Translations under genes and position numbers: made by a program
Notes under the pieces: model-generated
Seen by the model: the letters and a program-made list of their open reading frames with translations, nothing else
The model's database searches: none
What the model was told of the DNA's origin: nothing
DNA from: Oculatellaceae cyanobacterium bins.114
Lineage (GTDB): Bacteria; Cyanobacteriota; Cyanobacteriia; Elainellales; Elainellaceae
Direction of reading: 5' to 3'
NCBI GenBank assembly: GCA_033764315.1
Contig: JANRJA010000192.1
Location: 1-21,489, forward strand
Length of the DNA stretch: 21,489 bases
Shown: piece by piece, positions 5,229-21,489 of the stretch
How the letters are laid out: every line of letters starts with the position of its first letter
Numbering within the stretch: position 1 is the first letter of the stretch

Positions 5229-6521
5229 TCAACCCGAAATCGGCAACTGAATCCAAAACTCGGTACCCTGACCCACTTCAGACTGCACGGTCAAAATTCC
5301 CTGATGTTGTCGGGTGACAATTTGACGGGCGATCGCCAGACCTAATCCTGTGCCCTTACCAACGCTTTTAGTGGTGAATAAGTGATCAAAGATTTTGGAT
5401 TTGATCTCGTCTGGGATGCCTTTACCGTTGTCGTGAATGCGGATCTCCACAAGATTTTGGGGAGTGATCACAGCCGTTTGAATCGAGATCGTCTGAGGTT
5501 TGTCTTTGAGGTCTTCAAAGGAAGAATGTTCAGCTGCTTCATCAAACACATCGATCGCGTTTGCCAGGATATTCATAAAGACCTGATTGAGTCGCCCAGG
5601 AAAACATTGAATAAGGGGCAACTCGCCATAGTTCCGAATCACTTGAATGGCAGGGCGATATTCATTGGCTTTCAATCGGTATTTGAGAATTAATAGAGCA
5701 CTGTCGATGCCTTCGTGCAAATCAGCACTCTCCTTGTGTTCTGTATCGGTACGAGCAAAGGTACGAAGGCTATTGCTGATGTTACTAATGCGATCGGTTG
5801 CGTTTTTCATAGAGTCCAGCAACTTTGGCAAATCTTTGCTGAGAAACTCTAAATCAATCTCATTGGCGTGATCTTGTATGTCTGCGGCTGAATCGGGATA
5901 GTGTTGCTGATAGAGTGCTAAATGGTTGAGCAGGTCTTGTATGTAATCTTGGGCATGGTGGATGCTCCCTTCTAAAAAACCGATTGGGTTGTTAATTTCA
6001 TGACCAACCCCTGCCACTAAATTGCCCAGAGTTGACATTTTCTCAGCTTGAACTAATCGCAACTGAGAATGCTTGAGTTGTTCAAGGGCACTGTGCAACC
6101 CATGAGTGCTCTCTGCCACACGAATTTCTAGGGTTTTATTCCATTGCCGTAATTGCAAATGGGTTCTCACTCTGGCCAATAGTTCTTTTTCTTGAAATGG
6201 TTTGGTGATGTAATCGACGGCTCCTAGTTCAAACGCTTTGACCTTATTATCGATATCACTGAATGCTGTCATGAAGATGATCGGAATAGTAGCCATCTCC
6301 GGATTTGCTTTGATTTGCTGGCAGGTTTCAAAGCCGTCAATTCCAGGCATTTGCACATCAATTAAAATTAAATCTGGGAGATAGGTTTGCAGCCGTTTCA
6401 GGGCGCGATCGCCACTAATTGCAGTCGCGACTCCATACCCTACTGAAGTCAACATCTCCGTCACGACTTCTAAGTTAGTGGGCATATCATCTATAACCAG
6501 AATTTTGACGTCGTACCACAT
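5229..6521 (-). CDS. Cytoplasmic hybrid kinase: REC + HisKA + HATPase (NtrB-like H-box)
   Basis: REC: ILVIDD, DLILID, DYITKPF. H-box GHEINNP, N-box NQVFMNILANAID, G1 DNGKG, F/G2 [15 protein letters not shown]. Confidence 0.93.
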   Translation of the reverse strand: MWYDVKILVIDDMPTNLEVVTEMLTSVGYGVATAISGDRALKRLQTYLPDLILIDVQMPGIDGFETCQQIKANPEMATIPIIFMTAFSDIDNKVKAFELGAVDYITKPFQEKELLARVRTHLQLRQWNKTLEIRVAESTHGLHSALEQLKHSQLRLVQAEKMSTLGNLVAGVGHEINNPIGFLEGSIHHAQDYIQDLLNHLALYQQHYPDSAADIQDHANEIDLEFLSKDLPKLLDSMKNATDRISNISNSLRTFARTDTEHKESADLHEGIDSALLILKYRLKANEYRPAIQVIRNYGELPLIQCFPGRLNQVFMNILANAIDVFDEAAEHSSFEDLKDKPQTISIQTAVITPQNLVEIRIHDNGKGIPDEIKSKIFDHLFTTKSVGKGTGLGLAIARQIVTRQHQGILTVQSEVGQGTEFWIQLPISG

Positions 6522-6537
6522 AAATCAAATTCCCTGG

Positions 6538-9150
6538 CTAGATAGTGACTAAATAGTGTTGTAGTAATTCTTCAATCTCTTCTGCTTTAAATTGCTTAGC
6601 GAGTTGCAGCATGGGTTCGGCAAAAGGGAGATAGATGGGGTCGGTGTTGATCAATTGCTCAAGGTGCTCGCGCAACGTTTTTAGATTGGCCTGGTGAGCC
6701 AGCTCTAACAATATTTTTAAGGTGTCGTGGGGGGGCAAAATTAAATCATCGGGCACAGGGTCTGAAGTTGCTTGCTCGTTGACGTTGGGTTCATAAACCC
6801 ACTCTAAATCTAAATGAGTGGATATTAATTGAAACAACAACTGAGCATCTACGGGTTTCGCAATAAAGTCGTCACTACCGTGATCGAGTGCCATCTGCTG
6901 ATCGGCTGGAGATACGGATGCAGATGAAACAATGACCTTAGTGTGTTTAAAAGTTTCGTGACTACGAATGTAGTTCAACAATTCAAACCCATCCATGACT
7001 GGCATCACTAGATCAGCAATGACCAAATCAGGGTGCGTAGTCTGAAGTTGCTCTAAGCCGACTTGACCATTTTCTGCCTCAACCACTGAGAAACCGAGTG
7101 GTTCTAGTAGGTTTAACAGAACAGTCCGGTTTTCCCAGCGATCGTCTACCACCAAAATCTTGCGGCGATCGCCCGTATATCCCACCAGGCGATTGTTGTC
7201 CAGGGGTGTTTCTTGTTGATGCACCCAATCCTCAACCAGAGGTAACTGAATCGTAAAGAAAAACTCACTGCCTTCTCCCAGGCGGCTTCTGACCTGAATG
7301 TTCCCTCCCATCAGGTGAATAATACGTTGACTGATGGCAAGACCGAGTCCGGTTCCTTCTACATTCCACTGGCGATCGCCCACTTGCTCAAACGCTTGAA
7401 ACACTTTGGGGAGATCGGCTTCAGCAATGCCAGCTCCGGTATCGATTACCCTAAACAAAAGGGAGACTTGAGTCTCAGAGAGATTCAGCACGTCCACCTG
7501 TAGAGCCACTGACCCTTGATTTGTAAACTTAATGGCATTGCTCAACAAGTTCAGCAAAACCTGCCGCAACCGCTTTTCATCTGTTTTGACCCTACCCGGC
7601 AAACGAGAACTGGGCTGGTAAACAAACTCAATTCCCTTTTGGTCAGCTCGAAGCTTACATATTTCCACCACGCTTTGTAAGAGAGCAGGTAGATGCACTG
7701 CTGTTGGTGTTAATTCCAGCTTACGAGCTTCGATTTTAGACAGATCTAAAACATCGTTAATCAAAGTGAGCAGATGAGAGCCACATTGGTAGATGACGTT
7801 AACCCCATTGCGGTCTTGATCCGATAAAGTCTTAACCCGTGCCAAAATTTGGGCATACCCCAAGATGCCATTCAGGGGCGTTCGCAATTCGTGGCTCATG
7901 TTTGCCAAAAATTCGCTCTTAGCCTGGTTCGCTGCATCGGCTTGTTCTTTAGCCTGGGCTAACTCAGCAGTCCGCTCTGCTACCCGATGTTCTAGGGTTT
8001 CAAAAGACGTCTTGAGTTGTCCTGCCATTTGGTTAAAGGTTCGGGCTAGTGTGCCGACCTCGTCTTGGGTCATGACGGGCACCGTTTGAGTTAAATCTCC
8101 CTCGGCTAAGCGGGTGGCGGCTGCACTGATTGCCAAAATCGGACGGGTAATGCGTCGAGATAGCAGATAAACTGCAATTAGGAGCGTGCTAGAGGATAAA
8201 AAGCCAATGATCAAAATATTGCGAGCTAATTGCTGAGCCGGAAGAAAGGCTTGAGACTGGCTAATCTCAGCCATTAACGCCAGGTTCTGTGCAGGCAACC
8301 AGCGATAGACCCCCACCACCGGAACCCCCTGATAATTGACATAACGACCAAAGCCACTCTGTTGATCAATGGCGCGATCGATGCCCTCGCTGTGAATCTC
8401 CTCCGTCGTTGGGGTTGCATTGGCAGGGTCAGAAGCGGGTTGGTTAGTATCTTGCTTGGAGATAAAAATAGTTTCTCCCTTTGCCTGACCCACCAGATAG
8501 GTTTCTGCTGTTTCACCTAACCCCGTATTATCTCGAATCAGAGTATCTATCTCATTCAGATTGAGATCAGCAACGAGAGCCGCCATGCGGATTCCCTGCA
8601 CATCCACAATGGGCACGGCAACGGTAATGTCTGCTTTTTGAGTGGTTGGGGAGATATAGAAATTGGGGACGACCGTGTTGATGCGATCGCGGGTGAAGTA
8701 AGTGGTTGGGTCGCCCAAGGGACGGTAGGTTCCTTCTAAACTGGGATCAATAGAGTCAAAGACCACAAAGCCACTATTGCGAGTGATGCGAATGCTGTGA
8801 AGATTGGGTTTGATCTCAATGAGCCGAGTGATGTATTGATCCAGCGACTGATAGGCATTTTGATAAGACAGTTGAGTAGACTCGGTTGTCAGTAAGGTCT
8901 GAATGGCTGATTGAATCTCGGATTCTTGGCTCACCAACAAAATATCGCGTAACTGATCTTCAACCCATTTATTCAGCTGATAACTCTTGAGTTGGGCTGC
9001 CACCGTGAGTCGGTTGATCACTTCTGTTTCTAAAGAAGCACGGGCTTTGAAGTAAGAACCAACGGCGACAGCACTAATAGTAATGACCGATAGCACCGAA
9101 AAATAACTGACTAACTGGGTTAATAGGCTGGTATGCTGCCAACGTTTCAT
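6538..9150 (-). CDS. Membrane hybrid sensor histidine kinase (Cache-HAMP-HisKA-HATPase-REC)
   Basis: Two hydrophobic helices flank a Cache-like periplasmic region. HAMP (ITRPILAI...[13 protein letters not shown]), [24 protein letters not shown] and REC DLVIAD. Start placed at ATG 9150 (MKRWQ...), which overlaps the upstream stop as ATGA, rather than at 9201. Confidence 0.92.
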
Positions 9151-10574
9151 GCCCTTGCCTCCCATTCCATCCAAATGTCTTGGATACGAGCGATCGCCCA
9201 ATCAACTGCTTGTTCGGGCGATGCGTTGTCTTGAAGCACTTTAAGAACAGTTTTGCCCCAAACTTTTTGACCTAAAATTTGACTATAAGCCGGATGTAAG
9301 ACTTCATAGGGCAGAGGGCTGGGTTGTGTTTGAATCTTGAGTGCGGCTGAGAGGTGAGGATCTTCAGCATTGCGCCAATAGGGATCTGACAAGAGTTGCG
9401 GCATAACGGGCAGAAACCGACCCTTAAAGCCCTCCTTCAGCAATTGATTGAGATGCGTGGGTTGAATCAAATAGTTGACAAAGTCTTTAGCCGCTTCGGG
9501 GTGTTTGCCTGCTGTGAGCACAATAACCTGTTTGATGCCTTTTCTGGGCTGCATAGGCGTCCCATCCCGTTTTTGTGGCCAATTGACCATAGCGATTTGG
9601 CGGTAGCGATCAAAAGCATCTTGGTTATATTGATTGCGTTCTAATCGTTGGGTGAGGGGAATAGACAAGGTTGGATTATGGGTCATCAAAATTCCACCGT
9701 CTAAAAATCTAAAGTTGTTTCCCGATGCAGTCCAATCAGTTGCATCGGGAGGCACAAATCCCTGTTGATAAAAGCCTGTATATTCCTGTAAAACGTCAAT
9801 AAATTTCTGTCGGTTGTCGGGTTGGGGCAACACCAATTCTCCATCGTTGCTGACCACCGTTGCATTGTGAGCATCTAAAAACCACCGCAGTGACGTAAAC
9901 GTATCGACCCCTGATGCTGACATGCACAGCCCAACACCATAGATCTTGGGATATCCCTGAGCATGCAATTGTTGCTGGGACTGTTGCCAAAATTGCCAAA
10001 ATGCATCCCACTCTTGAGGAATGTCTTGGGTTGTTTGGTTAATACTTTCTAACAAATTAGACCAGCAATGAATATATTCCCCAGCATTACCGATGGGAAT
10101 TGCATAATAATGCCGCTCATTCAAAGTCTTATTACGATACGTCACTTGCAACAGAGTATCTGGAGTATAAGAAGCTTTGTTTTTTTCGAGTACATCTGAT
10201 ACGTCAGTGAGTTGATTTGCCCAAGCGAGCCTGGGGGCTAAATTTGCATCCAGGGAAATGGCAAATACAACATCTGGAACCTGATGTTTTTCTGGCTCTG
10301 CGATCGCTTTTAATAGCTCTTGCTCAAGGATGTTGATCTGCATCAACTTCAAGTTGGCTCTCAATCCTGATGCTTCTTCCCATCGGCGAACCAACTGGCT
10401 CACCCCTGCATTCTCTTCTGGCAAAAAGCCTTGCTCCCACCAAATCATTAGATCGGTTTGATCAATCGGGGCAGGTGTGTCTAAGGAGGTAAATTGGGAC
10501 TGTGGAGTGCAGTTTGATAACCCCATCCCCAACCCAAACAGGGATAGTCGTGTAAAATCTCGCCGGGTGAGCAT
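9147..10574 (-). CDS. Extracellular solute-binding protein (family 1-like), predicted Tat lipoprotein
   Basis: N-terminus MLTRRDF (twin-Arg), hydrophobic stretch and LSNC lipobox. [26 protein letters not shown] and [10 protein letters not shown] are typical of sugar-type ABC SBPs. 475 aa. Confidence 0.85.
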
Positions 10575-11144
10575 GAGCGGTGATGTTAAGAGTGTGGATC
10601 ATCAAGCGTCTTTAACATCTTGATTAGATAGCAAATGCATCGCCCCTCGCCAAACGATCAAGAGAAATCTGCCGATCTCTGTAGCGTATCCCTGGAAAAG
10701 GATTTAGCTCAAATCGTTTATTTAATCCTAACTAAAAAATAGTGTAAGGTAAATAGCTGTAATTTTCTAAATTAATTAGGGGTCGAATACTTAACTAACA
10801 GGTTTTATATCTTTTGTATATCCCTGAGCTAGGGTCTAGCGTGATGCTACCTCGTGTAGACCAGGATTATTGATATAACTCTGATCGAAGTAAAGACTCA
10901 GGGTGATGCAAAGGCTCAGGGCGATCGCACCCTAAAAACATTTGATGAAGATTTGTCCCGTCATGTCTCTAAAGATCTACCGATGGGCTGATCTAAACCT
11001 GTAAGAAGGGCTTGTGTGGCTCATTTCTATGCCAAAACCGTGGCTTTTGGAGCGTGACCAGCGATTGTGGGTGTTGTTAAGGCGATCGCTTTATTTAAGA
11101 AGTGCGATCGCTGTGAGAAAATAGAGCTTTCATGAGACTTATTT

Positions 11145-11468
11145 ATGCCCGCAGCTTACATTCAAGACGAAGCCGAGTTTGATGCTCTTCTGAGTGCAGA
11201 GTCATTGTTTGTGGTAGATTGCACTGCAACTTGGTGTGGTCCCTGCAAATTGATTGCTCCCTTAATTGATCAACTTGCTGATGAATATGGCGATCGCACT
11301 AAAGTCTTCAAATTAGACCTTGATGCTAATAAAGAGGTGGCTAAGCGATATGGCATTCGCAGCATTCCTGCTGTGATGTTTTTCACTAAAGGCGATTTAG
11401 CAGAGACGTTGGTTGGTGCGAAAAAATATGAAGATTACAGTGCTGCTTTGGGTAAGTATCTGGGCTAA
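11145..11468 (+). CDS. trxA: Thioredoxin
   Basis: 107 aa with WCGPC active site, YGIRSIP cis-Pro loop and F-x-KG...VGA. Probably a TrxA/m-type paralogue. Confidence 0.93.
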   Translation: MPAAYIQDEAEFDALLSAESLFVVDCTATWCGPCKLIAPLIDQLADEYGDRTKVFKLDLDANKEVAKRYGIRSIPAVMFFTKGDLAETLVGAKKYEDYSAALGKYLG

Positions 11469-11528
11469 CACTAATCCATTGTTCTTATCCTAGTGTGTTG
11501 AGCCAAAAGCGATGCGGCCCTGGTGCGG

Positions 11529-11554
11529 GCATCTTGCTTACAGGGGCGAGATGC
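11529..11554. repeat. Short hairpin repeat (GCATCTTGC...GCGAGATGC)
   Basis: 9-bp stem with one G:U pair, 11529-11537 / 11546-11554. Resembles a common cyanobacterial GGCATCTTGC repeat. Confidence 0.5.
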
Positions 11555-11556
11555 TT

Positions 11557-11657
11557 ATACCCATTTAGATTGGCTCCGCTGCACATGATTTCGTAAGGGC
11601 GTTTCGCGAAACGCCCTTACCCTAGCTATCTGCCACAATCAAAAATTAAATCGGTAT
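11557..11657. repeat. MITE-like element carrying a perfect 28-bp REP-like palindrome; may also act as a bidirectional terminator between convergent genes
   Basis: Ends ATACCCATTTA (11557-11567) and TAAATCGGTAT (11647-11657) are 10/11 inverted. Core GTAAGGGCGTTTCGCGAAACGCCCTTAC (11593-11620) is a perfect palindrome. Confidence 0.75.
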
Positions 11658-11680
11658 CAGTTTTGGTGCTGGCGATCGCT

Positions 11681-14320
11681 CTATTTAGAAATAACAGGTT
11701 CAATCAGTTGCACAATCGCTTCATCATCAAAGCTTTCAACTAATGTAATGACATAGTTGTAAAAATCGGGATACTCAGGCTCAAACTGAGTCACTTCTTC
11801 TATAATTTGCCGGACAAATCCACATCGTGCTGCATTATGCAAACTCAATAGCTGATTAGCAGGTGGAAATAGAATTGTGTTTTTATCAATTCCATTAGAT
11901 TCAGATTTGGTAGCCGAGTCAGAAATCGTATCTGTGCTATAAATCCACTCTAATTTGAGCAATTGTTGAAGTTGATAAAACAACTCTACGGCTTGAACAG
12001 GTTTAGGGAGAAAGCTGTTTCCCCCAACTTCAATACTATGAAAGCGATCGCTATCAGATACGCTAGCAGAAGACACAATAATAGGAATTGTCCGAAATTG
12101 TTCTGAGTTCCTAATGTGTTGAATGAGTTGATATCCATTGAGCACGGGCATTGCCAAATCAACAATGAGCAAGTCAGGCAGCAAGTGTTCAATCTTCTCA
12201 ATAGCATCTTTTCCGTTTGATGCTTCGCTCACTTTAAATTGCAAAGGTTTGAGCAGGCTAGAAACAACGGCACGATTCTCCCAATGATCATCCACAACCA
12301 AAATATGACGTTGCTGTCCACTATATCCTTTAATTTTTTGCTCTTGCAGCGAACTCTGAGTCGTAACCCACTGGTGGTCACAGGGACAACTGATCGAAAA
12401 CTCAAATGTACTGCCAACTCCGACCTGACTCGATACCTTAATTTCGCTGCCCATTAAATGAATAATATTTTGGCTAATCGTTAGCCCTAATCCAGTTCCT
12501 TCACTGTTTGTCTTGGCATAATCGGTTTGCTCAAACGGCATAAAGATCTTATCTAGATCATCGGGTGCGATTCCAACGCCAGTATCTCTAACCACAAAAC
12601 ACAGATGAGCCATTGATGGATCGGTGTCAGGCGTAAAATCTACGTGGAAACTCACTGTGCCAGAGTTAGTAAATTTAACCGCGTTCCCCAGCAAGTTAAT
12701 CAAGACTTGCCGCAACCGTTTTTGATCACTCGTGATGCAAATGGGAAGATTTTTAGATGAAGAAAACTGAAACCCAAGGTTTTTTTGATCTGCCCCAATC
12801 CGACATATTTTGACGACAGATTGCAAAAACTCAGGAAAATGAAACGTAGCTGGCTCCAGTTCAAGTCGATTGGCTTCGATTTTAGAAATATCTAAGATGT
12901 CGTTAATCAACGTTAAAAGATGAAACCCACAGTTATAGATAACTTCAACTCCCTGCCTTTCAGAAGATGTTAAGACGGGGGAGTCTTGCAAGATTTGAGC
13001 ATAGCCTAACACTCCGTTGAGCGGAGTTCTTAACTCGTGACTCATGTTGGCTAAAAATTGACTCTTGGCGTGATTTGCTGTATCTGCTTTATCTTTGGCA
13101 ATTCTTAGCTCATGGGTTCTCTCTTCGACTCGTTGCTCTAACTCAACCACAGAAGCTTGCAATTGAGAGGTCATGCTTTTTACAGCATGACTTAGAATGT
13201 CTAACTCATCTCCTTCACCTTCAGCTATTTCAGCTTGATTGAGAGGGGTTTGAGTACGACGAAGGGTGTCGTTGACTGTGACCGTTCTACACGTCTCAAG
13301 TAAAGGGTTGAGCCTTTTATTGAGCTGTCGAACAAAAAGAGCCGTCACAATAGCTAGGATTGACCCTGCCCCTAATACACCGCCAAAGGTGATTCGCAAT
13401 GCGGGATAAAGCACCACCGATTTGGGAACAGATGCCAGCATGATCCAATTGGTGCCGTCAATGTGTTCAAACGCCCAATAAGCTGTGTCGGTTTGCACAA
13501 TTCCAGTGGGGCGATCGCCGATCTGTTGCCAAACCTCTGTCAATTCAGTAGCATCGGGCACCTCAGAATAGGTTGCAAGATTACTCGCCTTTTCGGGATT
13601 AGGCGGATAAGCCAACAAATTGCCCTTGTCAGTCAAGATCATAAAGTAGCCCCCACCCCATTCTGGAGGGGATTGCACCTCTTTTGTGAGATCTCGAATT
13701 GTAATATCTAACCCCACCACACCCAATAAATCTCCGTCTCTGGTAAAGACAGGAGCCGTAACAGTGGTCATGGGAATGTTAAACCAGTTGTATGGCTCTA
13801 GCCAGATTGCCTCTCTAGCGTTGACGGGTGCGGTGTAATACACATTGTCAAAGCAGGAAGGCTCTAACTGACAAATATCGGTTAACCGGATGTTGTGTAA
13901 CGGTTTGGGCAGGGGAACTCCGACTTCATTGGGAATCCCCTGCTCATAAAAAGCGTAGGGCCAAAACGTTCGACGGTCAGTAAAAATACGATAAGGAGCT
14001 TGCCCAAATCCTGCGCCAACAGTTAACGAAGACCGTTTTCGCAGCATTTCTATAATGGCTTGTTGATAAACATCAGGGTCTTGCACCCCGATACTTTCTA
14101 AGACAGTCATGGTAGCTGTCAGGCTAATCATGGACTGCTCAGCCTTACCTAACTTTCCCTCAATGTCTTTGACCTGAGTGCTCAAATTATTTTCGATTTC
14201 TTGAATGGCTTGGCGTTCCAACGCTCGATAGAAAAAGAAGGCTGTGCCACCCAGTCCAACTAAGGCTCCCACTAAGACATAGAAAAACAAGCGTGCCCCA
14301 ATGGAGTTTTTGTAGATCAT
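11681..14320 (-). CDS. Membrane hybrid sensor histidine kinase (dCache-HAMP-HisKA-HATPase-REC)
   Basis: TM1 about aa 11-31. dCache hallmarks YY...WLEPY...TVTAPV...GVVGLDI and ILTDKGNLLAYP. TM2 about aa 308-330. [35 protein letters not shown] and REC DLLIVD. Confidence 0.93.
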   Translation of the reverse strand: MIYKNSIGARLFFYVLVGALVGLGGTAFFFYRALERQAIQEIENNLSTQVKDIEGKLGKAEQSMISLTATMTVLESIGVQDPDVYQQAIIEMLRKRSSLTVGAGFGQAPYRIFTDRRTFWPYAFYEQGIPNEVGVPLPKPLHNIRLTDICQLEPSCFDNVYYTAPVNAREAIWLEPYNWFNIPMTTVTAPVFTRDGDLLGVVGLDITIRDLTKEVQSPPEWGGGYFMILTDKGNLLAYPPNPEKASNLATYSEVPDATELTEVWQQIGDRPTGIVQTDTAYWAFEHIDGTNWIMLASVPKSVVLYPALRITFGGVLGAGSILAIVTALFVRQLNKRLNPLLETCRTVTVNDTLRRTQTPLNQAEIAEGEGDELDILSHAVKSMTSQLQASVVELEQRVEERTHELRIAKDKADTANHAKSQFLANMSHELRTPLNGVLGYAQILQDSPVLTSSERQGVEVIYNCGFHLLTLINDILDISKIEANRLELEPATFHFPEFLQSVVKICRIGADQKNLGFQFSSSKNLPICITSDQKRLRQVLINLLGNAVKFTNSGTVSFHVDFTPDTDPSMAHLCFVVRDTGVGIAPDDLDKIFMPFEQTDYAKTNSEGTGLGLTISQNIIHLMGSEIKVSSQVGVGSTFEFSISCPCDHQWVTTQSSLQEQKIKGYSGQQRHILVVDDHWENRAVVSSLLKPLQFKVSEASNGKDAIEKIEHLLPDLLIVDLAMPVLNGYQLIQHIRNSEQFRTIPIIVSSASVSDSDRFHSIEVGGNSFLPKPVQAVELFYQLQQLLKLEWIYSTDTISDSATKSESNGIDKNTILFPPANQLLSLHNAARCGFVRQIIEEVTQFEPEYPDFYNYVITLVESFDDEAIVQLIEPVISK

Positions 14321-14326
14321 GAAGGC

Positions 14327-17300
14327 TTACCTAGAAAACGTTGGCGATCGCAATTCAGACAACAGTTGACGTTCAGTAAAGTGTGTTAGGTAAGTTTGAA
14401 CCAACTCAGTGGGATTGACAACAGCCGTCGATATAGGAAAGGTAGAGACAACCGAATTAGACACTTGCAGGAACGTTTCAAGATAACTGTGAGCATCATA
14501 AAAATGATCAGTCACCAAAGGACGAATGGCGGTTAGGGGGTGTGAGTTATCGATGCACTCCTGGTGAACCCAATCTTGCCATTGTTTATAGGGCACTAAC
14601 TCCACTGGAAAACCAAACTGGTTGAGAGCCTGAATCAGCGATCGCCAGGGTAGAGAGGTAGGATAAACAATATGACTCAGAGCCTTGTCCAGGTGACTTG
14701 TGATCTGACGACAGGCATAGTCAATGGGGATCAGGTTAACAGCACCCTCAAATATTGGGGCTGCCTTGAGTCGAATTATACCTAAAATCAACCGTGCCAT
14801 TAGATCATCGGTCGGCCCTACCCCAGTAACACTATGACCTGTTAACATTCCAGCCCGATGGATTGTCGTTGGAATACCCCTTTCTAAAGCGGTTGTCATA
14901 AGGCGTTCGCCTACCCACTTGGTTTGGGCATAGCCACCCCCAACCTGATTAAAATCAGGAACGCTGGAGTTTTCATCGACTAGGCGATGACTCCGCAGAG
15001 GAAACGGGTTGACATCACACAAAGAGTGCAAAATATCGATGGTTGAAACAAAGTGAACTGGAATTGAGTTTAACCCGGCTAACCGTAAAACCTCCTGAGT
15101 ACCCACGACATTAGCTAACCGCAGTTGCTCATAAGACCGCATCAGATTAACCTCAGCCGCACAATGAAAGATGGTATGAATGCAGCCCGCTAGACCTTTT
15201 AAGCTAGGTAGACCAAACTGAGGTCGCGCCAAATCTCCAGGAACGACTACCACTCGACTGTCTAGCTCACTCGACTCAAGCATAAAGCGATCTAAGCTTT
15301 TTTTAAGGCGATGGAAGCCCTCTTTGGGGTTAGAGGCTCGCACCAGACAAAAAATGGTTTCAGAGGTGTCACGCAACAGCTGGTCTAACAAAAAGCTACC
15401 TAAAAAGCCAGTGGCTCCAGTTAATAAAATGCCTTTTTGAGGCTTAATTGGAAAACTCAGATGTTGTGGAGTAATAGTGTCATGAAGTCGTGCATCTATA
15501 TGTAAATCAGTTTCCATGAAGGGTGATTGCCTTGGTGAATTTTGACAAGAAATAAGATGCACGAGATCTCGAACAGTTGGACTGTTTAAGAACTCAAATA
15601 GGCTGATGGTGACTGAAAATTGCAGTTCAATTTGAGATAAGAGTTGCACGGCTAAGAGAGAGTGTCCTCCTAAGTCAAAGAAGGAATCTTCAATGCCGAC
15701 CTTACAATCGAGCAACTCAGACCAAATCTGACAGATTTGCGTTTCGATAGGGGTTTGAGGAGACACATAAAGTGAATCAAGCGTGCGATCGCCCCCAATA
15801 TCAGGAAGAGCTTTGCGATCAATCTTGCCATTCAAGGTGAGGGGCAAATCGGTTAAGCAACAGATTCGTTGAGGAATCATGTAATCGGGTAAGGTTTGTC
15901 GTAGCAATGCCCGCACTTCTTTGATTAATCGCTGATGTTTTAACTCAGCATAAGGCTCATGCGCGATCGCCTGACCCAACGCAGGAGTCGAGAAGTTAAC
16001 TGCTGTCAGGGGCAAATCATGGCGGCTAAACCGAACCTCATAGCATCCGAGCATAGGGGCAGGATGAAACGAGACACGATAGGACATCTGCTTGCCTAGC
16101 GACTCAAACACTGACAAATCAACCCCGATCAGGGTTGAGGGTTGAGCCATGACTCGTTGCAACTCGGCCACTGAACCTGTAGGAGTGTGGGCCAAATGAC
16201 GCGTAACCGCCAGTTGAGATTGAATTCGAGGGTTTGGAATATTGTAAATTCGTCCAGCGTGAAGGTTTTGGGAAGACAACAATTCTGCGAGTTCCGCGAT
16301 TGAAATGGACTGCTTTTGCCAATCGAGCACAAAATCTAGCTCTGCATCGCTCAACACTGGCTTAGCCTCAGCATACAGAAAAACATCGAACCGATATTGA
16401 GTTAATTCATTGTGATGCTGGCTCCGCTTCAGTTGCACATCAACACTGACCCCTGGTAACTGTTGCGTCAATTCATAGAAGTAAGCTGGGTTCAACAAGA
16501 GTTCATGTTCTTGTTGGATTTGCTGATTGATCAGTTGGTGCAGGGCTGCAATCGAGTGATGCGAAGCAGTCGTCTCTTTAAGAGAATTGCCCGACGCATG
16601 ATAAAGCGCATGTTCAGTATGAAACGCTTCCAACAAAGAGGCATCCCGCACATCGCCAATAAACAGACATCCCCCTGGAGCTAAAAGGGCGATCGCACTT
16701 TTAATCACCTCTGCTAGATAGGCTTGAGACGGAAAATATTGAATAACTGAGTTAATGACGATGACATCAAACTGAGACGAAAGTTCACCCACTTCATGCG
16801 CAGCCAAACAATGCAATGACACCTTTTGCTCAAGGGACGGATTCGTTGCCAGTTGAGTGTGAATATGACGAATTGCCTCAGCCGAAACATCTATCCCTGT
16901 ATAGTGCTCACACTGAGGAGCTAACTCAAATAAAAGCAAACCTGTGCCACAGCCAATTTCTAGAATGTTTTGGGGGTGAACTGAGGAAATCTGAGCAACT
17001 GTGTGTTGTACCCAATCCAACATCTCATCTGTGGTGAATGGCAAACTTGTGACTCGATTGATCCATCCGACCGTATTAAAGGTCGTTGCAGAACTCTGGC
17101 TATAGGTGGCATCCCAGACACTTCTCCAACTCTCAACATGGTTACTAGATTGATTAGCCGTAGGGACAACATAAGCCAGGAGTTGATGATCGTCGGACGT
17201 AGATCGAGCCACGACAACACAACTTTCAACCGCAGGATGCTGGCTAATCGTAGCTTCGATTTCGCCTAATTCCACGCGAAAGCCTCGAATTTTGACCTGA

Positions 17301-18502
17301 TGATCACTTCTACCCAGATATTTCAGATTGCCATCCGGCAGCCAACACCCCAAATCACCCGTTTTATAGAGTCTGCCCAATTGGGAGTGGTGGATAAAGC
17401 GGTCAGCGGTTAGCTGGGGCTGATAGAGATAACCCCGTGCTAACTTAGGACCCTGAATAAAAATTTCGCCAACCTCTCCCTCAGAAACAGGATTTAGGTC
17501 AGCATCAAATAGAAAAATCTCAGTCTGCGGCAGTGGCTTGCCAATTGACGGAGGTTCTGTTGACCCTTGAGTCACGTGCACTACCGTGGAATACGTCGTG
17601 TCTTCAGAGGGACCATACAAGTTATAAACCTGTTGAACATGCCCCAATTCATATAACTGCTGAGCGATTTTGTTAGGTAATGGCTCACCTGCCAGGTTAA
17701 CCACTGTCACAGATGCAGGAATACTTTGAGTTTTTAAGAGAGCCGCTGCTGCCGAAGGAACTGTATTAATCAGTGAAATCTTACGCTGAGTTGTTTCGGA
17801 GAGCTGACTGAGCGTTAAAGCGTTTTCGGTTAAGATAATGGTTCCTCCAGCCGCTAACGTTCCAAAAATTTCAAATACGGAGAGATCAAAACAAATGGAG
17901 GTGCTTGCCAACACTCCACTCAGTTGTTCAGGGCTGAAGAAGTCCAGGATCCACTCTAGGAAAGCGACTGTATTACGGTGTTCGATCGCTACTCCCTTGG
18001 CTTTTCCCGTGGAACCTGATGTGTAGATCACGTACGCCAGATGGTGAGGCTCAGTCTGAGTAGGCAGTGAATGGGTTGGCAAAGCCGCAATATCAGTGTG
18101 TGCAGCGGCGATATCTAGGGTTGGAGTGAGTGAGGATAGGGAATCGCAAACCCCCGCTTTTGACAGTAATAATACGGGGTTGGCGTCACTCAGAATAGTG
18201 GACAGACGATTTAAGGGATAAGACGGATCAAGTGGTAGGTAAGCTGCGCCTGCTTTTAAGATAGCCAACAAGCCAACAATTAAGTCGGGCGATCGCTCCA
18301 AACAAATCCCGACTAAACTATCGGGGTGAAGATCAAAAGTACTTAAGTATCGAGCCAGTTGATTAGAGCGATGATCAAGTTCCTCATAGGTGAGTAACTG
18401 CCCATCAAAATCAATTGCGATCGCGTTAGGGGCTTGCCGGACTTGAGCTTCAAAGAAGGTGTGAATTAGCCTGGAGGTAGGTAATTTTGTTGAAAGGTAC
18501 AC
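14327..18502 (-). CDS. Stand-alone NRPS-like enzyme A(N-MT)-T-R: adenylation domain interrupted by an N-methyltransferase, carrier domain, thioester reductase; no C domain
   Basis: A motifs LTYEEL, YVIYTSGSTGKAKG, FDLS, NLYGPSE, GEIFIQG..LARGY, YKTGDL, GRSDHQVKIRGFRVELGEIE. MT insert ILEIGCGTG, NSVIQYFP, GGCLFIGDVR, NELTQYRFDV. Then A9 LPDYMIP and A10 NGKIDR. T domain FFDLGGHSL. R domain LLTGATGFLG, FVST, GYAQTKW. Likely GTG start at 18502, 6 nt after AAGGAG (the ORF track starts at 18550). Confidence 0.93.
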   Translation of the reverse strand: MYLSTKLPTSRLIHTFFEAQVRQAPNAIAIDFDGQLLTYEELDHRSNQLARYLSTFDLHPDSLVGICLERSPDLIVGLLAILKAGAAYLPLDPSYPLNRLSTILSDANPVLLLSKAGVCDSLSSLTPTLDIAAAHTDIAALPTHSLPTQTEPHHLAYVIYTSGSTGKAKGVAIEHRNTVAFLEWILDFFSPEQLSGVLASTSICFDLSVFEIFGTLAAGGTIILTENALTLSQLSETTQRKISLINTVPSAAAALLKTQSIPASVTVVNLAGEPLPNKIAQQLYELGHVQQVYNLYGPSEDTTYSTVVHVTQGSTEPPSIGKPLPQTEIFLFDADLNPVSEGEVGEIFIQGPKLARGYLYQPQLTADRFIHHSQLGRLYKTGDLGCWLPDGNLKYLGRSDHQVKIRGFRVELGEIEATISQHPAVESCVVVARSTSDDHQLLAYVVPTANQSSNHVESWRSVWDATYSQSSATTFNTVGWINRVTSLPFTTDEMLDWVQHTVAQISSVHPQNILEIGCGTGLLLFELAPQCEHYTGIDVSAEAIRHIHTQLATNPSLEQKVSLHCLAAHEVGELSSQFDVIVINSVIQYFPSQAYLAEVIKSAIALLAPGGCLFIGDVRDASLLEAFHTEHALYHASGNSLKETTASHHSIAALHQLINQQIQQEHELLLNPAYFYELTQQLPGVSVDVQLKRSQHHNELTQYRFDVFLYAEAKPVLSDAELDFVLDWQKQSISIAELAELLSSQNLHAGRIYNIPNPRIQSQLAVTRHLAHTPTGSVAELQRVMAQPSTLIGVDLSVFESLGKQMSYRVSFHPAPMLGCYEVRFSRHDLPLTAVNFSTPALGQAIAHEPYAELKHQRLIKEVRALLRQTLPDYMIPQRICCLTDLPLTLNGKIDRKALPDIGGDRTLDSLYVSPQTPIETQICQIWSELLDCKVGIEDSFFDLGGHSLLAVQLLSQIELQFSVTISLFEFLNSPTVRDLVHLISCQNSPRQSPFMETDLHIDARLHDTITPQHLSFPIKPQKGILLTGATGFLGSFLLDQLLRDTSETIFCLVRASNPKEGFHRLKKSLDRFMLESSELDSRVVVVPGDLARPQFGLPSLKGLAGCIHTIFHCAAEVNLMRSYEQLRLANVVGTQEVLRLAGLNSIPVHFVSTIDILHSLCDVNPFPLRSHRLVDENSSVPDFNQVGGGYAQTKWVGERLMTTALERGIPTTIHRAGMLTGHSVTGVGPTDDLMARLILGIIRLKAAPIFEGAVNLIPIDYACRQITSHLDKALSHIVYPTSLPWRSLIQALNQFGFPVELVPYKQWQDWVHQECIDNSHPLTAIRPLVTDHFYDAHSYLETFLQVSNSVVSTFPISTAVVNPTELVQTYLTHFTERQLLSELRSPTFSR

Positions 18503-18508
18503 GTTTAA

Positions 18509-18514
18509 CTCCTT
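18509..18514 (-). promoter_or_regulatory. Shine-Dalgarno site of the NRPS-like gene
   Basis: AAGGAG 6 nt upstream of the in-frame GTG at 18502. Confidence 0.7.
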
Positions 18515-18633
18515 GATGAAGACGACCGACAACAAGGTTATTAAACGCATTTATACGGAAAAATGATAAAGTGCTTCTACTGATTTTTGAGTAGATTTTT
18601 ATTGTATTCACAGTGTTTTTACGGATAGGGATA

Positions 18634-19965
18634 TTAATACTGATCCTGATTTAAGAGTGCTTGCCTTTGTAACCGTGATTGTGACAGTGGAATGGTAACT
18701 GTAAATACCGAACCTTTTGAAGATGACTGATACTGAATCGTTCCGTGATGGCGATTCATGATGATTTCATAACAAATTGACAACCCTAAGCCTGTTCCTT
18801 TGCCAACCGGCTTAGTGGTAAAAAACGGATCAAAAACTTTCTCTTTAATGCAATCTGGTATACCGATCCCATTATCCTCAACGTCAATTTTGATCGATTG
18901 CTCACCAACCTGATAAGTTGACAAAACAATCGTCGGGAGTTGAGTTTGAAATGCTTCAGATCTTAATGCCTTCTCATCAATCGCATCGATCGCATTAGCA
19001 ATGAGATTCATAAATACCTGATTTAGAAAACCAGGAAAACACTCTACTAACGACTCTACATAAAAATTCTTGATCAGTTCAATCTTAGGACGTGTTGCTG
19101 AACTGCTTAATCGATGCCCTAATAGCAATAGAGTATTGTTAATTCCCTCATGGATATCCATTTCTCTTAAAAGTGAACTTCCAGTTCTGGAAAAAATTTG
19201 AAGAGATTGAATGATTTCTTGAGTTCGAGAGGTTCCCGTTTGGATCGAATTTAACAGGTTAGGTAAATCAGTTTGAATAAAATCCCAATCGATTTCCGTC
19301 ATTAATTGTTGAATCTCATGTGGCGGATTTGGATAGTGATTGGTATATAAATCAATTACTTTTAATAGACTATCTGTATATAACTGAAGGTGCTCTAGAT
19401 TGCCATGAATAAAATTGATCGGATTGTTGATCTCGTGGGCGATCCCTGCCATCATTTGCCCAAGACCCGCTAACTTTTCGGCTTGAATTAACTGCACCTG
19501 AGCTTGCTGAAGACTACTGAGAGTTTGTTGCAGTTTTTCTTCAGTTTCCTGATGGGTTTTAATTTCTTGTAAAAGTTGTTGATGAGAGTGCTTTAGCTGC
19601 AAGTGAACTGAGATGCGGGCGATCGCCTCTCGAAGCTGCACTGGCTTAGTAATATAATCAACGGCTCCTACCTCAAATCCCCTGACTTTGCTGGTCTCAT
19701 CAGTCAGGGCAGTCATAAAAATAATTGGAATTGAACGGGTTAATGGATCGGCTTTTAGAGCTTGACATGTCTCAAAGCCATCCATACCATTCATACAAAT
19801 ATCGAGCAAGATCAAATCAGGAAGGGTTTGTCGGGCTTTTTTTAGTGCACTTTCTCCACTTTTTGCCACAAAGCTATCAAATCCAGTTTGGTCAAAGGCT
19901 TCAACTAAAACTCGTAAATTGGTGGGCGTGTCATCAACAATCAAAATAGAGGCAGAGGGAACCAT
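18634..19965 (-). CDS. Cytoplasmic hybrid kinase: REC + HisKA + HATPase
   Basis: REC: ILIVDD, DLILLD, DYITKP. H-box [40 protein letters not shown]. Start placed at ATG 19965 ([16 protein letters not shown] upstream) because 20109 overlaps the upstream gene. Confidence 0.92.
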
Positions 19966-20038
19966 GCAATATCTCACTCCTATAAATTCTGATAAGGACT
20001 CAGGACGTGATCCGGGTAGATGCATCTTGAACCCAATA

Positions 20039-21151
20039 TTAGTTACGTAACACGACGTCATCAGATGCATTAAACATAATTTGGAATCGAGTTTTAGGAG
20101 ACACCTCAAACTTAAGCTCTCCTTGGAGTTGTCGGGTCAAGATTTTGACGAGTTTTAACCCCAAAGTTGTTGGATTAGTAATATCAACACTGTGTTCTGG
20201 AAAACCAATTCCATCATCTTCAACAGTGAGGTGACATAAGCCTTCATCAGATCGAGATAAAGAGACTACAATTTCTCCTTTTGATTGACTCTTAAAGGCA
20301 TACTTTAAAGCATTTGTCAAAAGCTCATTAATGATTAAAGAACAAGGGATAGCTTTATCAATTCCTAAGAAAAATTTATCGGCATGAATATAAATTGAGA
20401 CGGTATTAGTTTTGTCATATACCTCTAATAAAGCTTTGCAGAGTTGTGACAGAAAGATATTGAAGTCGATGTGAGCAAAACTTTTTGTGCCATACAGCAA
20501 ATGATGGATCATGGCGATCGTATCAATCCGGGTCTGGCTGTCGTGGAAGGCATTCAGTGCAACCGGATCGGTAATGCACGACGCTTGTAGTTTGAGAATG
20601 CTAGAGACGACTTGTAAGTTGTTTTTAACGCGATGATGAACTTCTTGTAGAAGAATATCTTTTTCAGCCAGGGCTAAGCGAATTGTCTCTAAATAAGAGG
20701 CTTGAATTTCAAGCTGTTCTTGCAATTTTGAGTTGAGTTTTTTGATCTGTAAACTGGCGGTTTGGATGCTCAACTGATGTTGAATTCGAGCTAACACCTC
20801 TTCTTTTTGAAAAGGTTTAGTAATGTAGTCTGCTCCTCCAACTTTAAAGCCAGTAATTTTGTCACTCACTTGATCTAAAGCACTTAAAAAGATAATCGGT
20901 ATTTCTCTAGTTCTGTCATCTTTCTTTAACTGCTCACAGGCTCTAAATCCATCAATACCGGGCATCCGAATATCGAGCAAAATTAGATCTGGTTTAATTA
21001 GAATTGCTTTTTCACAGGCACTGCTGCCATTTTTGGCAACAAATACTCTGAAACCGGATTGCTCAAGCAGATCACTCAATACCTGGAGATTAGCAGGATT
21101 GTCATCAGCAATGAGGATCGATTGAGAAGTCTGGTAACTTGAGCTATCCAT
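20039..21151 (-). CDS. REC + HisKA_2-type histidine kinase
   Basis: REC: ILIADD, DLILLD, DYITKPF. HisKA_2 H-box EVHHRVKNNLQ, NELLTNALKYAF, DDGIG, TLGLKLV. Confidence 0.92.
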   Translation of the reverse strand: MDSSSYQTSQSILIADDNPANLQVLSDLLEQSGFRVFVAKNGSSACEKAILIKPDLILLDIRMPGIDGFRACEQLKKDDRTREIPIIFLSALDQVSDKITGFKVGGADYITKPFQKEEVLARIQHQLSIQTASLQIKKLNSKLQEQLEIQASYLETIRLALAEKDILLQEVHHRVKNNLQVVSSILKLQASCITDPVALNAFHDSQTRIDTIAMIHHLLYGTKSFAHIDFNIFLSQLCKALLEVYDKTNTVSIYIHADKFFLGIDKAIPCSLIINELLTNALKYAFKSQSKGEIVVSLSRSDEGLCHLTVEDDGIGFPEHSVDITNPTTLGLKLVKILTRQLQGELKFEVSPKTRFQIMFNASDDVVLRN

Positions 21152-21429
21152 GAACCACGCATCAATATTAGTTTTAGAGAAAATATGTAAAACCTACTCC
21201 ACCTTAAACCCTGCCTGCAACATTTTTACCATCATGGTATTACCGTTGCTATATCACTTAGAACATTAGCTTTAAAGAGGTTTGAAGTATTTTCCTAATC
21301 AGGAATTTTAACCCCGCAACTCGGCTTGCTCTTGACAGCAGTTTCACGTAGACACACTCTATTGCTCAGTATGCCCACAATACTTGGTGAACTAAAAATA
21401 TTGCTTGAACTCAAGCGTAACCAAGTTCA

Positions 21430-21489
21430 TATAGCAGTCCTAAATCAGTTGTGAAATGGGCGGGTTGTGAGAGGCGCACCCCAGAGGGG
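21430..21489. mobile_element. Possible terminus of an IS630-related MITE/IS (truncated by window edge)
   Basis: TATAGCAGTCCTAAATCAGTTGTGAAA resembles TA-flanked 'TAGCA(A/G)TCCTAAAT' termini I recall from cyanobacterial repeats. GC content rises immediately after. The partner end is not visible. Confidence 0.4.

Follow-up and report, generated by a model that had tools for sequence, protein, structure and literature searches.

Several quorum-sensing (QS) systems, namely CqsA/CqsS, LuxM/LuxN, RpfF/RpfC and PhcB/PhcS/PhcR of Ralstonia, pair the gene for a signal synthase with that for a membrane kinase, often a hybrid one, by which the signal is sensed, and the locus described here resembles them in layout. 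Of these kinases, LuxN, CqsS and RpfC are named as hybrid QS kinases in passages of a preprint (10.1101/2020.11.15.381053). The locus lies in what we call the window, the whole analysed stretch of 21,489 nucleotides (positions 1-21,489) from contig JANRJA010000192.1 of Oculatellaceae cyanobacterium bins.114, a genome of 6.6 Mb in 251 contigs that is 90.7% complete. The region under study (11681-21151) comprises four genes, all on the minus strand. They include a nonribosomal peptide synthetase (NRPS) of a single module, a hybrid sensor kinase with a double-Cache (dCache) domain encoded directly downstream of it, and a receiver-containing kinase (REC-kinase).

The enzymes PvfC and HamD consist of adenylation (A), carrier (T) and thioester reductase (R) domains. 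In Pseudomonas and Burkholderia, the Pvf (PvfA-D) and Ham (valdiazen) systems use a small NRPS to produce extracellular autoinducers that control many genes, as described in excerpts of PMC10194917 and PMC5878181; the former stated in 2023 that the Pvf receptor was still unknown. Single-module A-T-R enzymes are called rare and little explored in bacteria in parts of PMC8179380. On the receptor side, passages of PMC10589655 describe dCache_1AM receptors (PacA, PctD, McpX), which recognise amines from primary to quaternary and are found both in kinases and in chemoreceptors, and an archaeal dCache_1AM kinase encoded beside a dimethylamine methyltransferase, an enzyme acting on its ligand. The word "cyanobacteria" is absent from the main text of that article, supplementary datasets aside, and the main text of the phylum-wide survey of cyanobacterial clusters by Calteau et al. 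(2014) is likewise free of "histidine kinase," "two-component," "sensor" and "reductase domain." Full-text literature searches, supplementary files aside, returned no description of the present arrangement, and a kinase-based autoinducer system for cyanobacteria was not found in the literature searches.

We have found that the window holds one member of a conserved cyanobacterial cassette, composed of an R-terminated monomodular NRPS, a membrane sensor kinase directly downstream and a REC-kinase. That synthase and kinase are functionally coupled is well supported. Since the NRPS/kinase pairing recurs across many cyanobacterial groups, the cassette is probably a make-and-sense chemical signal system. 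The more specific proposal, that the NRPS product is the ligand of the adjacent kinase, has in our estimate a probability of about 0.5.

Recurrent linkage of a monomodular NRPS and a membrane sensor kinase

We have assessed the linkage from both partners (handles with G denote genomes and those with L denote loci). A profile search of one-genome-per-species contigs with the sensor domain gave 49 loci with relatives. In 31 of them sensor identity was at least 45%, and 30 of these 31 had at least 3 kb of upstream sequence and were hence assessable. An R-terminated NRPS was encoded on the same strand, at most 1.4 kb upstream, in 24 of the 30. In L061 the NRPS was divergently placed beside the sensor, and the sensors of L052, L054, L058, L064 and L072 had no NRPS. 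At 40-44% sensor identity none of the five assessable loci had an upstream NRPS, and below 40% it was found in one of five. The loci were nearly all cyanobacterial, from Oculatellaceae, Elainella, Leptolyngbya sp. JSC-1, Calothrix, Tolypothrix, Nostoc, Dulcicalothrix and Aetokthonos; further carriers were Chroococcidiopsis, Hydrococcus, Pleurocapsa, Spirulina, Lyngbya confervoides, a Pseudanabaenaceae metagenome-assembled genome, Tumidithrix and Microcoleus. Among 401 evenly drawn genomes of the class, 120 contained the sensor family at E ≤1e-30. For the strongest matches examined in this sample, the hybrid-kinase form was accompanied by the NRPS in 12 of 16 places, and the sensor domain fused to other outputs in none.

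The same 401 genomes were searched with the whole NRPS, which matched 32 places at E ≤1e-195, with 28 matches reaching the R domain. The window's sensor type stood directly downstream in 10 places (G000, G001, G015, G013, G210, G002, G311, G352, G259, G087) and other dCache_1(+HAMP) kinases were downstream in 7 (G040, G064, G097, G283, G160, G326, G237). One place had a convergent dCache kinase (dCache+HAMP, G024), two had MASE1 kinases after the NRPS (G017, G010) and one had an AA_permease-PAS-GAF kinase in that position (G071). Three places were cut by a contig end (G099, G110, G155) and four had no kinase (G072, G084, G201, G360), the NRPS matches of G201 and G360 lying inside multimodular clusters, followed by aminotransferases. 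Altogether, a membrane sensor kinase occurred within ~3 kb of the gene for the A-T-R enzyme, which carries a methyltransferase (MT) in its A domain [A(MT)-T-R], in 21 of the 28 places, or 21 of the 25 assessable ones. As a background, kinase cores are present in 137 of the 4880 open reading frames (ORFs) of at least 150 amino acids (aa) in the window's genome (~2-3%). The NRPS matches spanned at least 11 GTDB-style families, and the linkage was kept at 35-45% NRPS identity and through rearrangement, insertion of accessory genes and a change to unrelated sensor types. The arrangement is beyond chance and recurs in many genera.

The preliminary description of this DNA had proposed a four-gene circuit making and sensing a small N-methylated amine, a view that a lack of recurrent linkage among homologues would have undermined. 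The linkage proved recurrent on both the sensor side (24/30) and the NRPS side (21/28), and the enzyme architecture was also as described. Linkage of the REC-HisKA_2 gene (gene 1) is restricted to the window's genus: its orthologue in the same-genus genome G001 is 82% identical and has an equivalent position, and the gene is absent from the cassettes outside the genus. The conserved unit is the NRPS, the sensor kinase and the REC-kinase. A REC-kinase 45-51% identical to that of the window (gene 2) adjoins the sensor in most related loci. It is encoded upstream of the NRPS in the window and usually after the sensor elsewhere, the position downstream of the sensor being nearly universal among the cassettes.

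Several loci show other arrangements. In L105 (G087:C60, 8870-18618) a single sensor kinase comes after two A(MT)-T-R genes in tandem (1546 and 1534 aa, with the codes DILQFGVIW and DMPQLGMVW). In Myxacorys almedinensis (L052/L106), the genes before the solo sensor kinase (~6190-9492 in L052) encode HlyD, a permease of the FtsX/MacB type and a type II thioesterase, and the A(MT)-T-R gene of the species is found at the edge of another contig. The second copy of Oculatellaceae Prado106 (L054, 1-3790) is an NRPS-less sensor kinase encoded after radical SAM/DUF4070, dehydroquinate-synthase-like and AI-2E-family transporter proteins. Members of the sensor family (~40% identity) are also carried by methyl-accepting chemotaxis proteins (MCPs) in PatA-type (DUF4388-REC)/CheY/CheW/MCP operons (L126, 6206-11342; likewise MCP-borne in L112, L114, L119, L120, L121 and L123). 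These MCP copies co-occur with the NRPS-kinase cassette in Elainella Prado103 and Leptolyngbya sp. JSC-1; the window's genome has the kinase copy only. Homologues of 33-41% identity occur in the large sulfur bacteria Thioploca, Thiomargarita, Albibeggiatoa and Thiotrichaceae (L069, L074, L075, L079-L081), with no NRPS beside them where the flank was long enough, and their presence fits gene exchange with cyanobacteria.

The enzyme, its sensor and their gene layout

The NRPS is a condensation-less A(MT)-T-R enzyme with an intact domain set, as had been described and as confirmed by Pfam, NCBIfam and the core motifs of the translation; no condensation domain was found by Pfam in the protein or in the scanned ORFs of the window. 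The A domain (AMP-binding, E 1e-75; TIGR01733, 408 bits vs. a 317-bit cut-off) has an AMP-binding_C part and motifs A3, A5, A7, A8 and A10, with the MT located inside a ~420-aa insert between motifs A8 and A9. The solved interrupted A domain 5wmm_A, which we take to be the backbone-N-methylating one of TioS, aligns to aa 31-780 (E 3e-121). The carrier domain presents the phosphopantetheine-attachment serine motif GGHS, and the R domain (TIGR01746, 244 bits vs. a 213-bit cut-off; MxaA 4u7w, E 4e-57) the catalytic motif YAQTK. The NCBIfam models for Lys2 and carboxylic acid reductase (CAR) match the NRPS in part. It stays below the cut-offs of the AusA, MxcG, Lys2 and CAR equivalogs, and none of the four cassette proteins received an equivalog-level NCBIfam assignment.

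The specificity code of the A domain, DLFNNALTYK, is identical to the ten-residue code of McyA2, whose pocket is tabulated as "predicted Ala, activated Ala" (PMC3640908, Table 2) and for which L-Ala activation was shown in vitro (bioRxiv 10.1101/2023.11.13.566838). McyA (8jbr_A) is also the best single-A-domain match in the PDB (E 6e-151). The predicted substrate is alanine and the predicted product N-methylalaninal or N-methylalaninol, aldehyde and alcohol being inseparable by sequence alone. We infer methylation on N, rather than on C, O or S, because of the A8/A9 insertion site and because the MT is missing exactly where the code is Pro-like, proline being already a secondary amine.

This last point came from comparing the cassettes with the window's sensor type. 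The Ala code (DLFNNALTY) was found in eight of them, including that of the window, all with MT, and Gly-type codes (DILQLGMIW and variants) were also always accompanied by MT; examples with MT are the eight Ala-type cassettes, L046-L065 and L103-L105. Pro-like codes (DVQxIAH) were found without MT in 6/6 (L043, L044, L045, L047, L049, L071). DILQLGMIWK is a Gly code (PMC12283262) and DVQ[FY]IAHV.K a Pro code (PMC2866473, PMC9113097). Since the Ala and Gly-type codes come with an MT and the MT-less codes are Pro-like, the predicted products would all be secondary amines, and their shared feature is predicted to be a small secondary-amine aldehyde or alcohol. Other enzymes have other partners: acidic-pocket codes (DAEDIGTVV-like) pair with dCache+HAMP kinases, whereas the partner of bimodular Pro-Gly enzymes is a MASE1 kinase in G017 and G010 and the convergent dCache+HAMP kinase in G024. 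Exceptions are L037, L078, L087 and L089.

The NRPS of the window's genus is unusually diverged: in 20 orthologues 332 columns are near-invariant, and 54 of them are changed here, in common with G001. The changes affect every domain and leave the catalytic motifs intact. The ratio of nonsynonymous to synonymous substitution rates (dN/dS) against G001 was 0.05-0.10 for all four genes, and 0.10 for the NRPS, with saturated dS. We have considered decay of the NRPS into a pseudogene and rejected it, given the spared catalytic motifs, the changes shared with G001 and the dN/dS of 0.10. The sequence comparison is that of a fast-evolving gene maintained under purifying selection.

The sensor domain of the partner kinase scored 41.5 bits for dCache_1 (PF02743), below the 45-bit cut-off of Pfam, and passed that of MCP-like_PDC_1 (PF22673; 32.0 vs. 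27). An AlphaFold2 model built with 45 homologues (predicted local distance difference test, pLDDT, 89) has a long N-terminal helix (7-76) and a second membrane helix (300-344) flanking two PAS-like modules. Foldseek matched the model to solved dCache ligand-binding domains with E 1e-16 to 1e-10 and a probability of 1.00 for MkcA, mmHK1S-Z3, PacA, TlpQ and Mlp24; the list also contained mmHK1S-Z2, McpX, PctD, McpU and PctA, amine and amino-acid receptors (PacA, TlpQ, McpX, PctD, McpU, Mlp24) being plentiful in it. The fold hence upholds the dCache label given earlier, despite the sub-threshold PF02743 score, and as modelled the sensor is a divergent, periplasmic dCache subfamily.

In a search of the PDB with the family profile, PacA (7psg) was the best match (E 1e-14) and the archaeal mmHK1S the next closest, with Mlp24 at E 8e-8 and PctA at 1e-6. 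D205 is invariant in the sensor family, and the aromatics WPY120-122, YY161-162, W173 and W179 are invariant or nearly so. The amine receptors PacA, PctD and McpX keep the Asp and aromatics of amino-acid sensors and have lost the carboxylate-binding Arg, according to the passages of PMC10589655. In the HMMER alignment, the conserved DYY of the family lines up with the DYY of PacA, which is suggestive only. The whole kinase stayed below the cut-off of every named NCBIfam equivalog, including LuxQ and HrmK; the LuxQ match (281 bits vs. a 1200-bit cut-off) was confined to the transmitter.

The positions of genes and domains are compiled in Table 1. ORF coordinates and Pfam domains bore out the reported order of co-oriented genes (REC-HisKA_2 kinase, REC-kinase, NRPS, dCache hybrid kinase), as well as the 6 nt between NRPS and sensor: the NRPS stop codon TAA occupies 14329-14327 and is followed, after six bases, by the ATG at 14320. 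This spacing suggests co-transcription and translational coupling. For gene 2, the most likely start is ATG 19965 rather than TTG 20109, because in the long ORF 54 residues precede the REC domain; genes 1 and 2 would therefore be ~73 nt apart, with no overlap. The NRPS probably starts at GTG 18502, 6 nt behind AAGGAG, which would give a protein of ~1391 aa, separated by ~131 nt from the REC-kinase gene. In line with a later start, the same-genus NRPS orthologue aligns only from residue 15-21. A scan of 10500-21489 gave 11 promoter-like sites (20.1 expected) and 17 terminator-like sites (10.1 expected), with no convincing promoter or terminator between the genes, and does not inform on the operon structure. 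A search for sequencing runs containing this DNA, RNA runs among them, returned none.

Table 1. Genes, domains and spacer of the NRPS-kinase locus in the window
Feature	Position	Strand	Basis
Gene 1, REC-HisKA_2-HATPase_c kinase, 370 aa	20039-21151	-	Pfam Response_reg + HisKA_2 + HATPase_c
Gene 2, REC-HisKA-HATPase_c (REC-kinase), 443 aa from ATG 19965	18634-19965 (long ORF to 20109)	-	Pfam
Gene 3, monomodular NRPS A(N-MT)-T-R, 1407 aa	14327-18550	-	Pfam, NCBIfam, PDB matches
A-domain core, aa 33-467, code DLFNNALTY(K)	17150-18454	-	Code extraction; AMP-binding aa 33-375
S-adenosylmethionine-dependent MT core, aa 523-655	16586-16984	-	Methyltransf_12/25/23/31/11 (Pfam)
Carrier (T) domain, aa 938-1000, GGHS motif	15551-15739	-	PP-binding E 3e-15
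Thioester reductase (R), aa 1041-1349, GATGFLG + YxxxK	14504-15430	-	NAD_binding_4 (aa 1043-1283) E 9e-57
Spacer, NRPS stop/sensor ATG, six bases	14321-14326	-	Sequence; 7 nt in same-genus genome G001
Gene 4, hybrid sensor kinase, transmembrane (TM)-dCache-TM-HisKA-HATPase_c-REC, 879 aa	11681-14320	-	Pfam, translation
Periplasmic double-Cache sensor domain, ~aa 35-305, between two TM helices	13406-14218	-	AlphaFold2 model, Foldseek, profile search
Transmitter HisKA + HATPase_c (aa 418-643) + receiver (aa 673-781)	11978-13069	-	Pfam

As previously noted, the window has no other NRPS or polyketide synthase, tailoring or exporter genes among the scanned ORFs of at least 80 aa, short overlapping ORFs falling outside the scan. 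Its remaining ORFs encode a GH15/phosphorylase-kinase-like protein, an AstE/AspA-family enzyme, a thioredoxin and a second signalling module. A second NRPS was not found in the 90.7%-complete genome, where the next matches (E 4e-10 or weaker) were ligase- or methyltransferase-sized ORFs.

In the second module (5229-10574, minus strand), the gene for a dCache-HAMP hybrid kinase (6538-9201) is overlapped by that for an SBP_bac_8 protein (9147-10574) and precedes a REC-kinase gene (5229-6521), so that a solute-binding protein stands where the NRPS stands in the first module. We have rejected this second dCache kinase as a receptor of the same kind: its 44% identity is found only from the second TM helix onward, and the sensor domain is unrelated. 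In each of the two hybrid kinases, the receiver is followed by a conserved C-terminal tail, helical and ~90 residues long (11684-11965 and 6541-6822, minus strand). These C-terminal 94 residues match no Pfam family, and an Hpt domain was not found anywhere in the cluster.

The signal-and-receptor reading and its alternatives

The following route would account for the arrangement. The A domain would activate L-alanine, which the MT between A8 and A9 would N-methylate on the carrier. The R domain would then reductively release N-methylalaninal, with a second reduction giving N-methylalaninol. The small secondary amine would reach the periplasm, where the hybrid kinase, co-translated with the NRPS, would bind it with its double-Cache domain and signal through its receiver domain to the REC-kinase or REC-kinases, in chains that in sister cassettes end in diguanylate cyclases or PP2C phosphatases. 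The amine might be an autoinducer that depends on cell density, or else an autocrine or developmental cue. Product identity, export, the ligand role, the phosphotransfer route and a density-dependent response are the parts that we infer.

The variant cassettes bear on this proposal. MatE exporter genes separate the synthase from the sensor in L094 and come right after the synthase in L090, and genes for NNMT/PNMT/TEMT-family amine N-methyltransferases are present in L032, L091 and L092. L057 contains an alanine racemase gene, and L044 and L071 contain genes for short-chain dehydrogenases/reductases (SDR). Outputs encoded after the REC-kinase are REC-GGDEF (L040, L102, L044), REC-PAS-GGDEF-EAL (L100) and CheY-like plus HisKA-REC-SpoIIE proteins (L047, L053). 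No DNA-binding domain was found in any scanned cassette gene. The product as ligand is the simplest reading, and it fits the exporter and amine-methyltransferase variants, the periplasmic sensor resembling amine receptors, the outputs without a DNA-binding domain and the way in which sensor classes pair with substrate classes.

A number of observations weigh against this reading. As to production and release of a signal, no exporter domain was found among the scanned ORFs of the window, and no phosphopantetheinyl transferase (PF01648) in the 90.7%-complete assembly; PF01648 was present in 5/5 relatives searched, including the same-genus genome. As to the linkage, related genomes do not provide independent observations, and separate events are hence fewer than the counts suggest. 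No kinase accompanies four of the A(MT)-T-R loci, 6 of the 30 close sensors are without a same-strand upstream NRPS, and the sensor domain is found as well at the head of chemotaxis receptors that have no NRPS in their vicinity. As to ligand recognition, the published amine-binding motif could not be mapped residue by residue onto the sensor. Its presumed pocket residues are near-invariant across Ala, Gly and Pro cassettes, NRPS-less "solo" sensors and sulfur-bacterial homologues, and only three alignment columns separate the substrate classes. We have rejected such columns as evidence of ligand tuning, given that C150/C156 vs. aromatic tracks one clade that includes solo sensors and thus amounts to a single event. 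With a near-invariant pocket and class columns that reflect one clade, there is little sign of ligand-specific tuning.

The co-phylogeny of synthase and sensor, proposed earlier as a check, did not come out clean. Sensors of the Ala class form one clade (Shimodaira-Hasegawa-like approximate likelihood ratio test, SH-aLRT, 99), which counts in favour of the reading, as do the 6-nt junction and the purifying selection on all four genes. The tree of the T-R region was poorly resolved, had a very long branch for the window and G001 and did not recover the Ala class, a further point on the unfavourable side. A separate observation concerns the phosphopantetheinyl transferase: in Oculatellaceae Prado106 a PF01648 match is found on the cassette contig itself (G013:C494 24422-24616; L030 16578-17211), in the ORF after the REC-kinase gene.

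The alternative that best withstands these data is cluster-situated regulation, in which the kinase would sense an external cue, such as an environmental amine or amino acid, and control the production or use of the NRPS metabolite. There would be no ligand-receptor pair, and the metabolite would serve elsewhere, e.g., in defence, as an osmolyte or reactive aldehyde, or as a precursor of lipid head groups. Two-component genes are common inside biosynthetic clusters. Sensor residues that do not change with substrate class, and that are kept in NRPS-less homologues and chemoreceptors, fit a general environmental ligand, and the 6/30 close sensors lacking an upstream NRPS count in the same direction. 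We nevertheless regard this alternative as unlikely. The scanned cassette genes encode kinases, GGDEF/EAL proteins and PP2C phosphatases as outputs and no DNA-binding domain, and MATE exporters are encoded between synthase and sensor (L094) or right after the synthase (L090). Moreover, distinct NRPS classes pair with distinct sensor classes: small secondary-amine codes with the window's dCache type, acidic-pocket codes with dCache+HAMP and bimodular enzymes with MASE1, except in G024.

It is still less probable that the kinase senses a substrate or by-product, monitoring a precursor (periplasmic Ala, Gly, Pro or their N-methyl forms) or guarding against the reactive amino aldehyde, with no cell-to-cell signal. 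The solved dCache relatives do include amino-acid receptors (Mlp24 with Gly, Pro and Ser; PctA), one cassette has an alanine racemase and one partner kinase an amino-acid-permease-like domain. Against this, the closest solved relatives are the amine receptor PacA and mmHK1S, with Mlp24 and PctA scoring far lower; amine receptors are without the carboxyl-binding Arg in the passages of PMC10589655, and the alignment of the family DYY with that of PacA points, if only suggestively, the same way. Neutral synteny, i.e., neighbours by shared descent with no functional tie, could draw on the many loci from related lineages, the passive persistence of gene order and the poorly resolved T-R tree, and is very improbable given a linkage kept at 35-45% NRPS identity, in at least 11 families and through rearrangements (REC-kinase position, divergent L061) and accessory insertions, and recurring with unrelated sensor types when kinases make up only ~2-3% of ORFs.

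If the NRPS product is indeed the ligand of the adjacent kinase, a broader view can be formulated, which we find possible, if doubtful. Cyanobacteria would have phylum-wide NRPS-based chemical "dialects," read by cognate adjacent kinases and driving cyclic di-GMP (c-di-GMP) and phosphatase outputs, with solo sensors eavesdropping. The signals would be single amino acids turned into secondary-amine aldehydes or alcohols (N-methyl-Ala, N-methyl-Gly, Pro), plus basic-amino-acid and dipeptide variants. The self-made amine might induce surface or biofilm behaviour as an autoinducer and also attract filaments of the producer, guiding their motility. Such a dual role is possible because, in some carrier genomes, chemoreceptors of PatA/CheY/CheW-type operons have the sensor domain too.

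The cassette offers a candidate pair of matched synthase and receptor with a predictable, simple and synthesisable ligand. Its natural Ala, Gly and Pro variants allow tests of specificity, and the outputs, being c-di-GMP enzymes, are readable. As the cassette occurs in cultured strains (Leptolyngbya sp. JSC-1 and Calothrix, Tolypothrix and Chroococcidiopsis strains), coordination of mat- and biofilm-forming cyanobacteria is directly testable. If true, the signal-and-receptor reading would explain what a widespread "orphan" class of NRPS does, and likewise a large subfamily of dCache domains.

Comparison with known systems

Single-module A-T-R enzymes, such as those of the guanipiperazine pathway, Lys2, carboxylic acid reductases and MxaA-type release, resemble the NRPS of the cassette in being condensation-less and in releasing an aldehyde or alcohol. 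The NRPS differs from all of these in its inserted methyltransferase and alanine code, and those enzymes are not described with sensor kinase partners. McyA2 of microcystin synthetase has the same ten-residue code, but it is a module of a multimodular line with condensation and epimerisation, whereas the NRPS described here stands alone.

Among NRPS-based autoinducers, the Pvf/Ham clusters need an N-oxygenase (PvfB), are without an inserted methyltransferase and are proteobacterial, with no described adjacent sensor kinase; a PvfB/HamC-like diiron N-oxygenase domain was not found in the scanned ORFs of the window. On the receptor side, the ligands of dCache_1AM domains are environmental or catabolic substrates, whereas the ligand proposed for the cassette is the product of the neighbouring enzyme.

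The likeness to CqsA/CqsS and LuxM/LuxN drawn in the preliminary description held for the layout, by analogy, as adjacency of synthase and kinase is conserved across taxa; it did not extend to the proteins, which are unrelated. The CqsA/CqsS, LuxM/LuxN, RpfF/RpfC and Phc synthases have no homology to the cassette NRPS. The sensors of these systems are multi-pass membrane domains and not periplasmic dCache domains. The signals of these kinase pairs are ketones, acyl-homoserine lactones and fatty-acid derivatives, whereas that predicted for the cassette is an amine derived from an amino acid. In PhcB-PhcS-PhcR, a methyltransferase synthase, a kinase and a receiver fused to a kinase-like domain resemble the succession of NRPS, hybrid kinase and REC-kinase. 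By analogy, the cassette would work like the synthase-kinase QS pairs and the NRPS autoinducers, being homologous to none of them.

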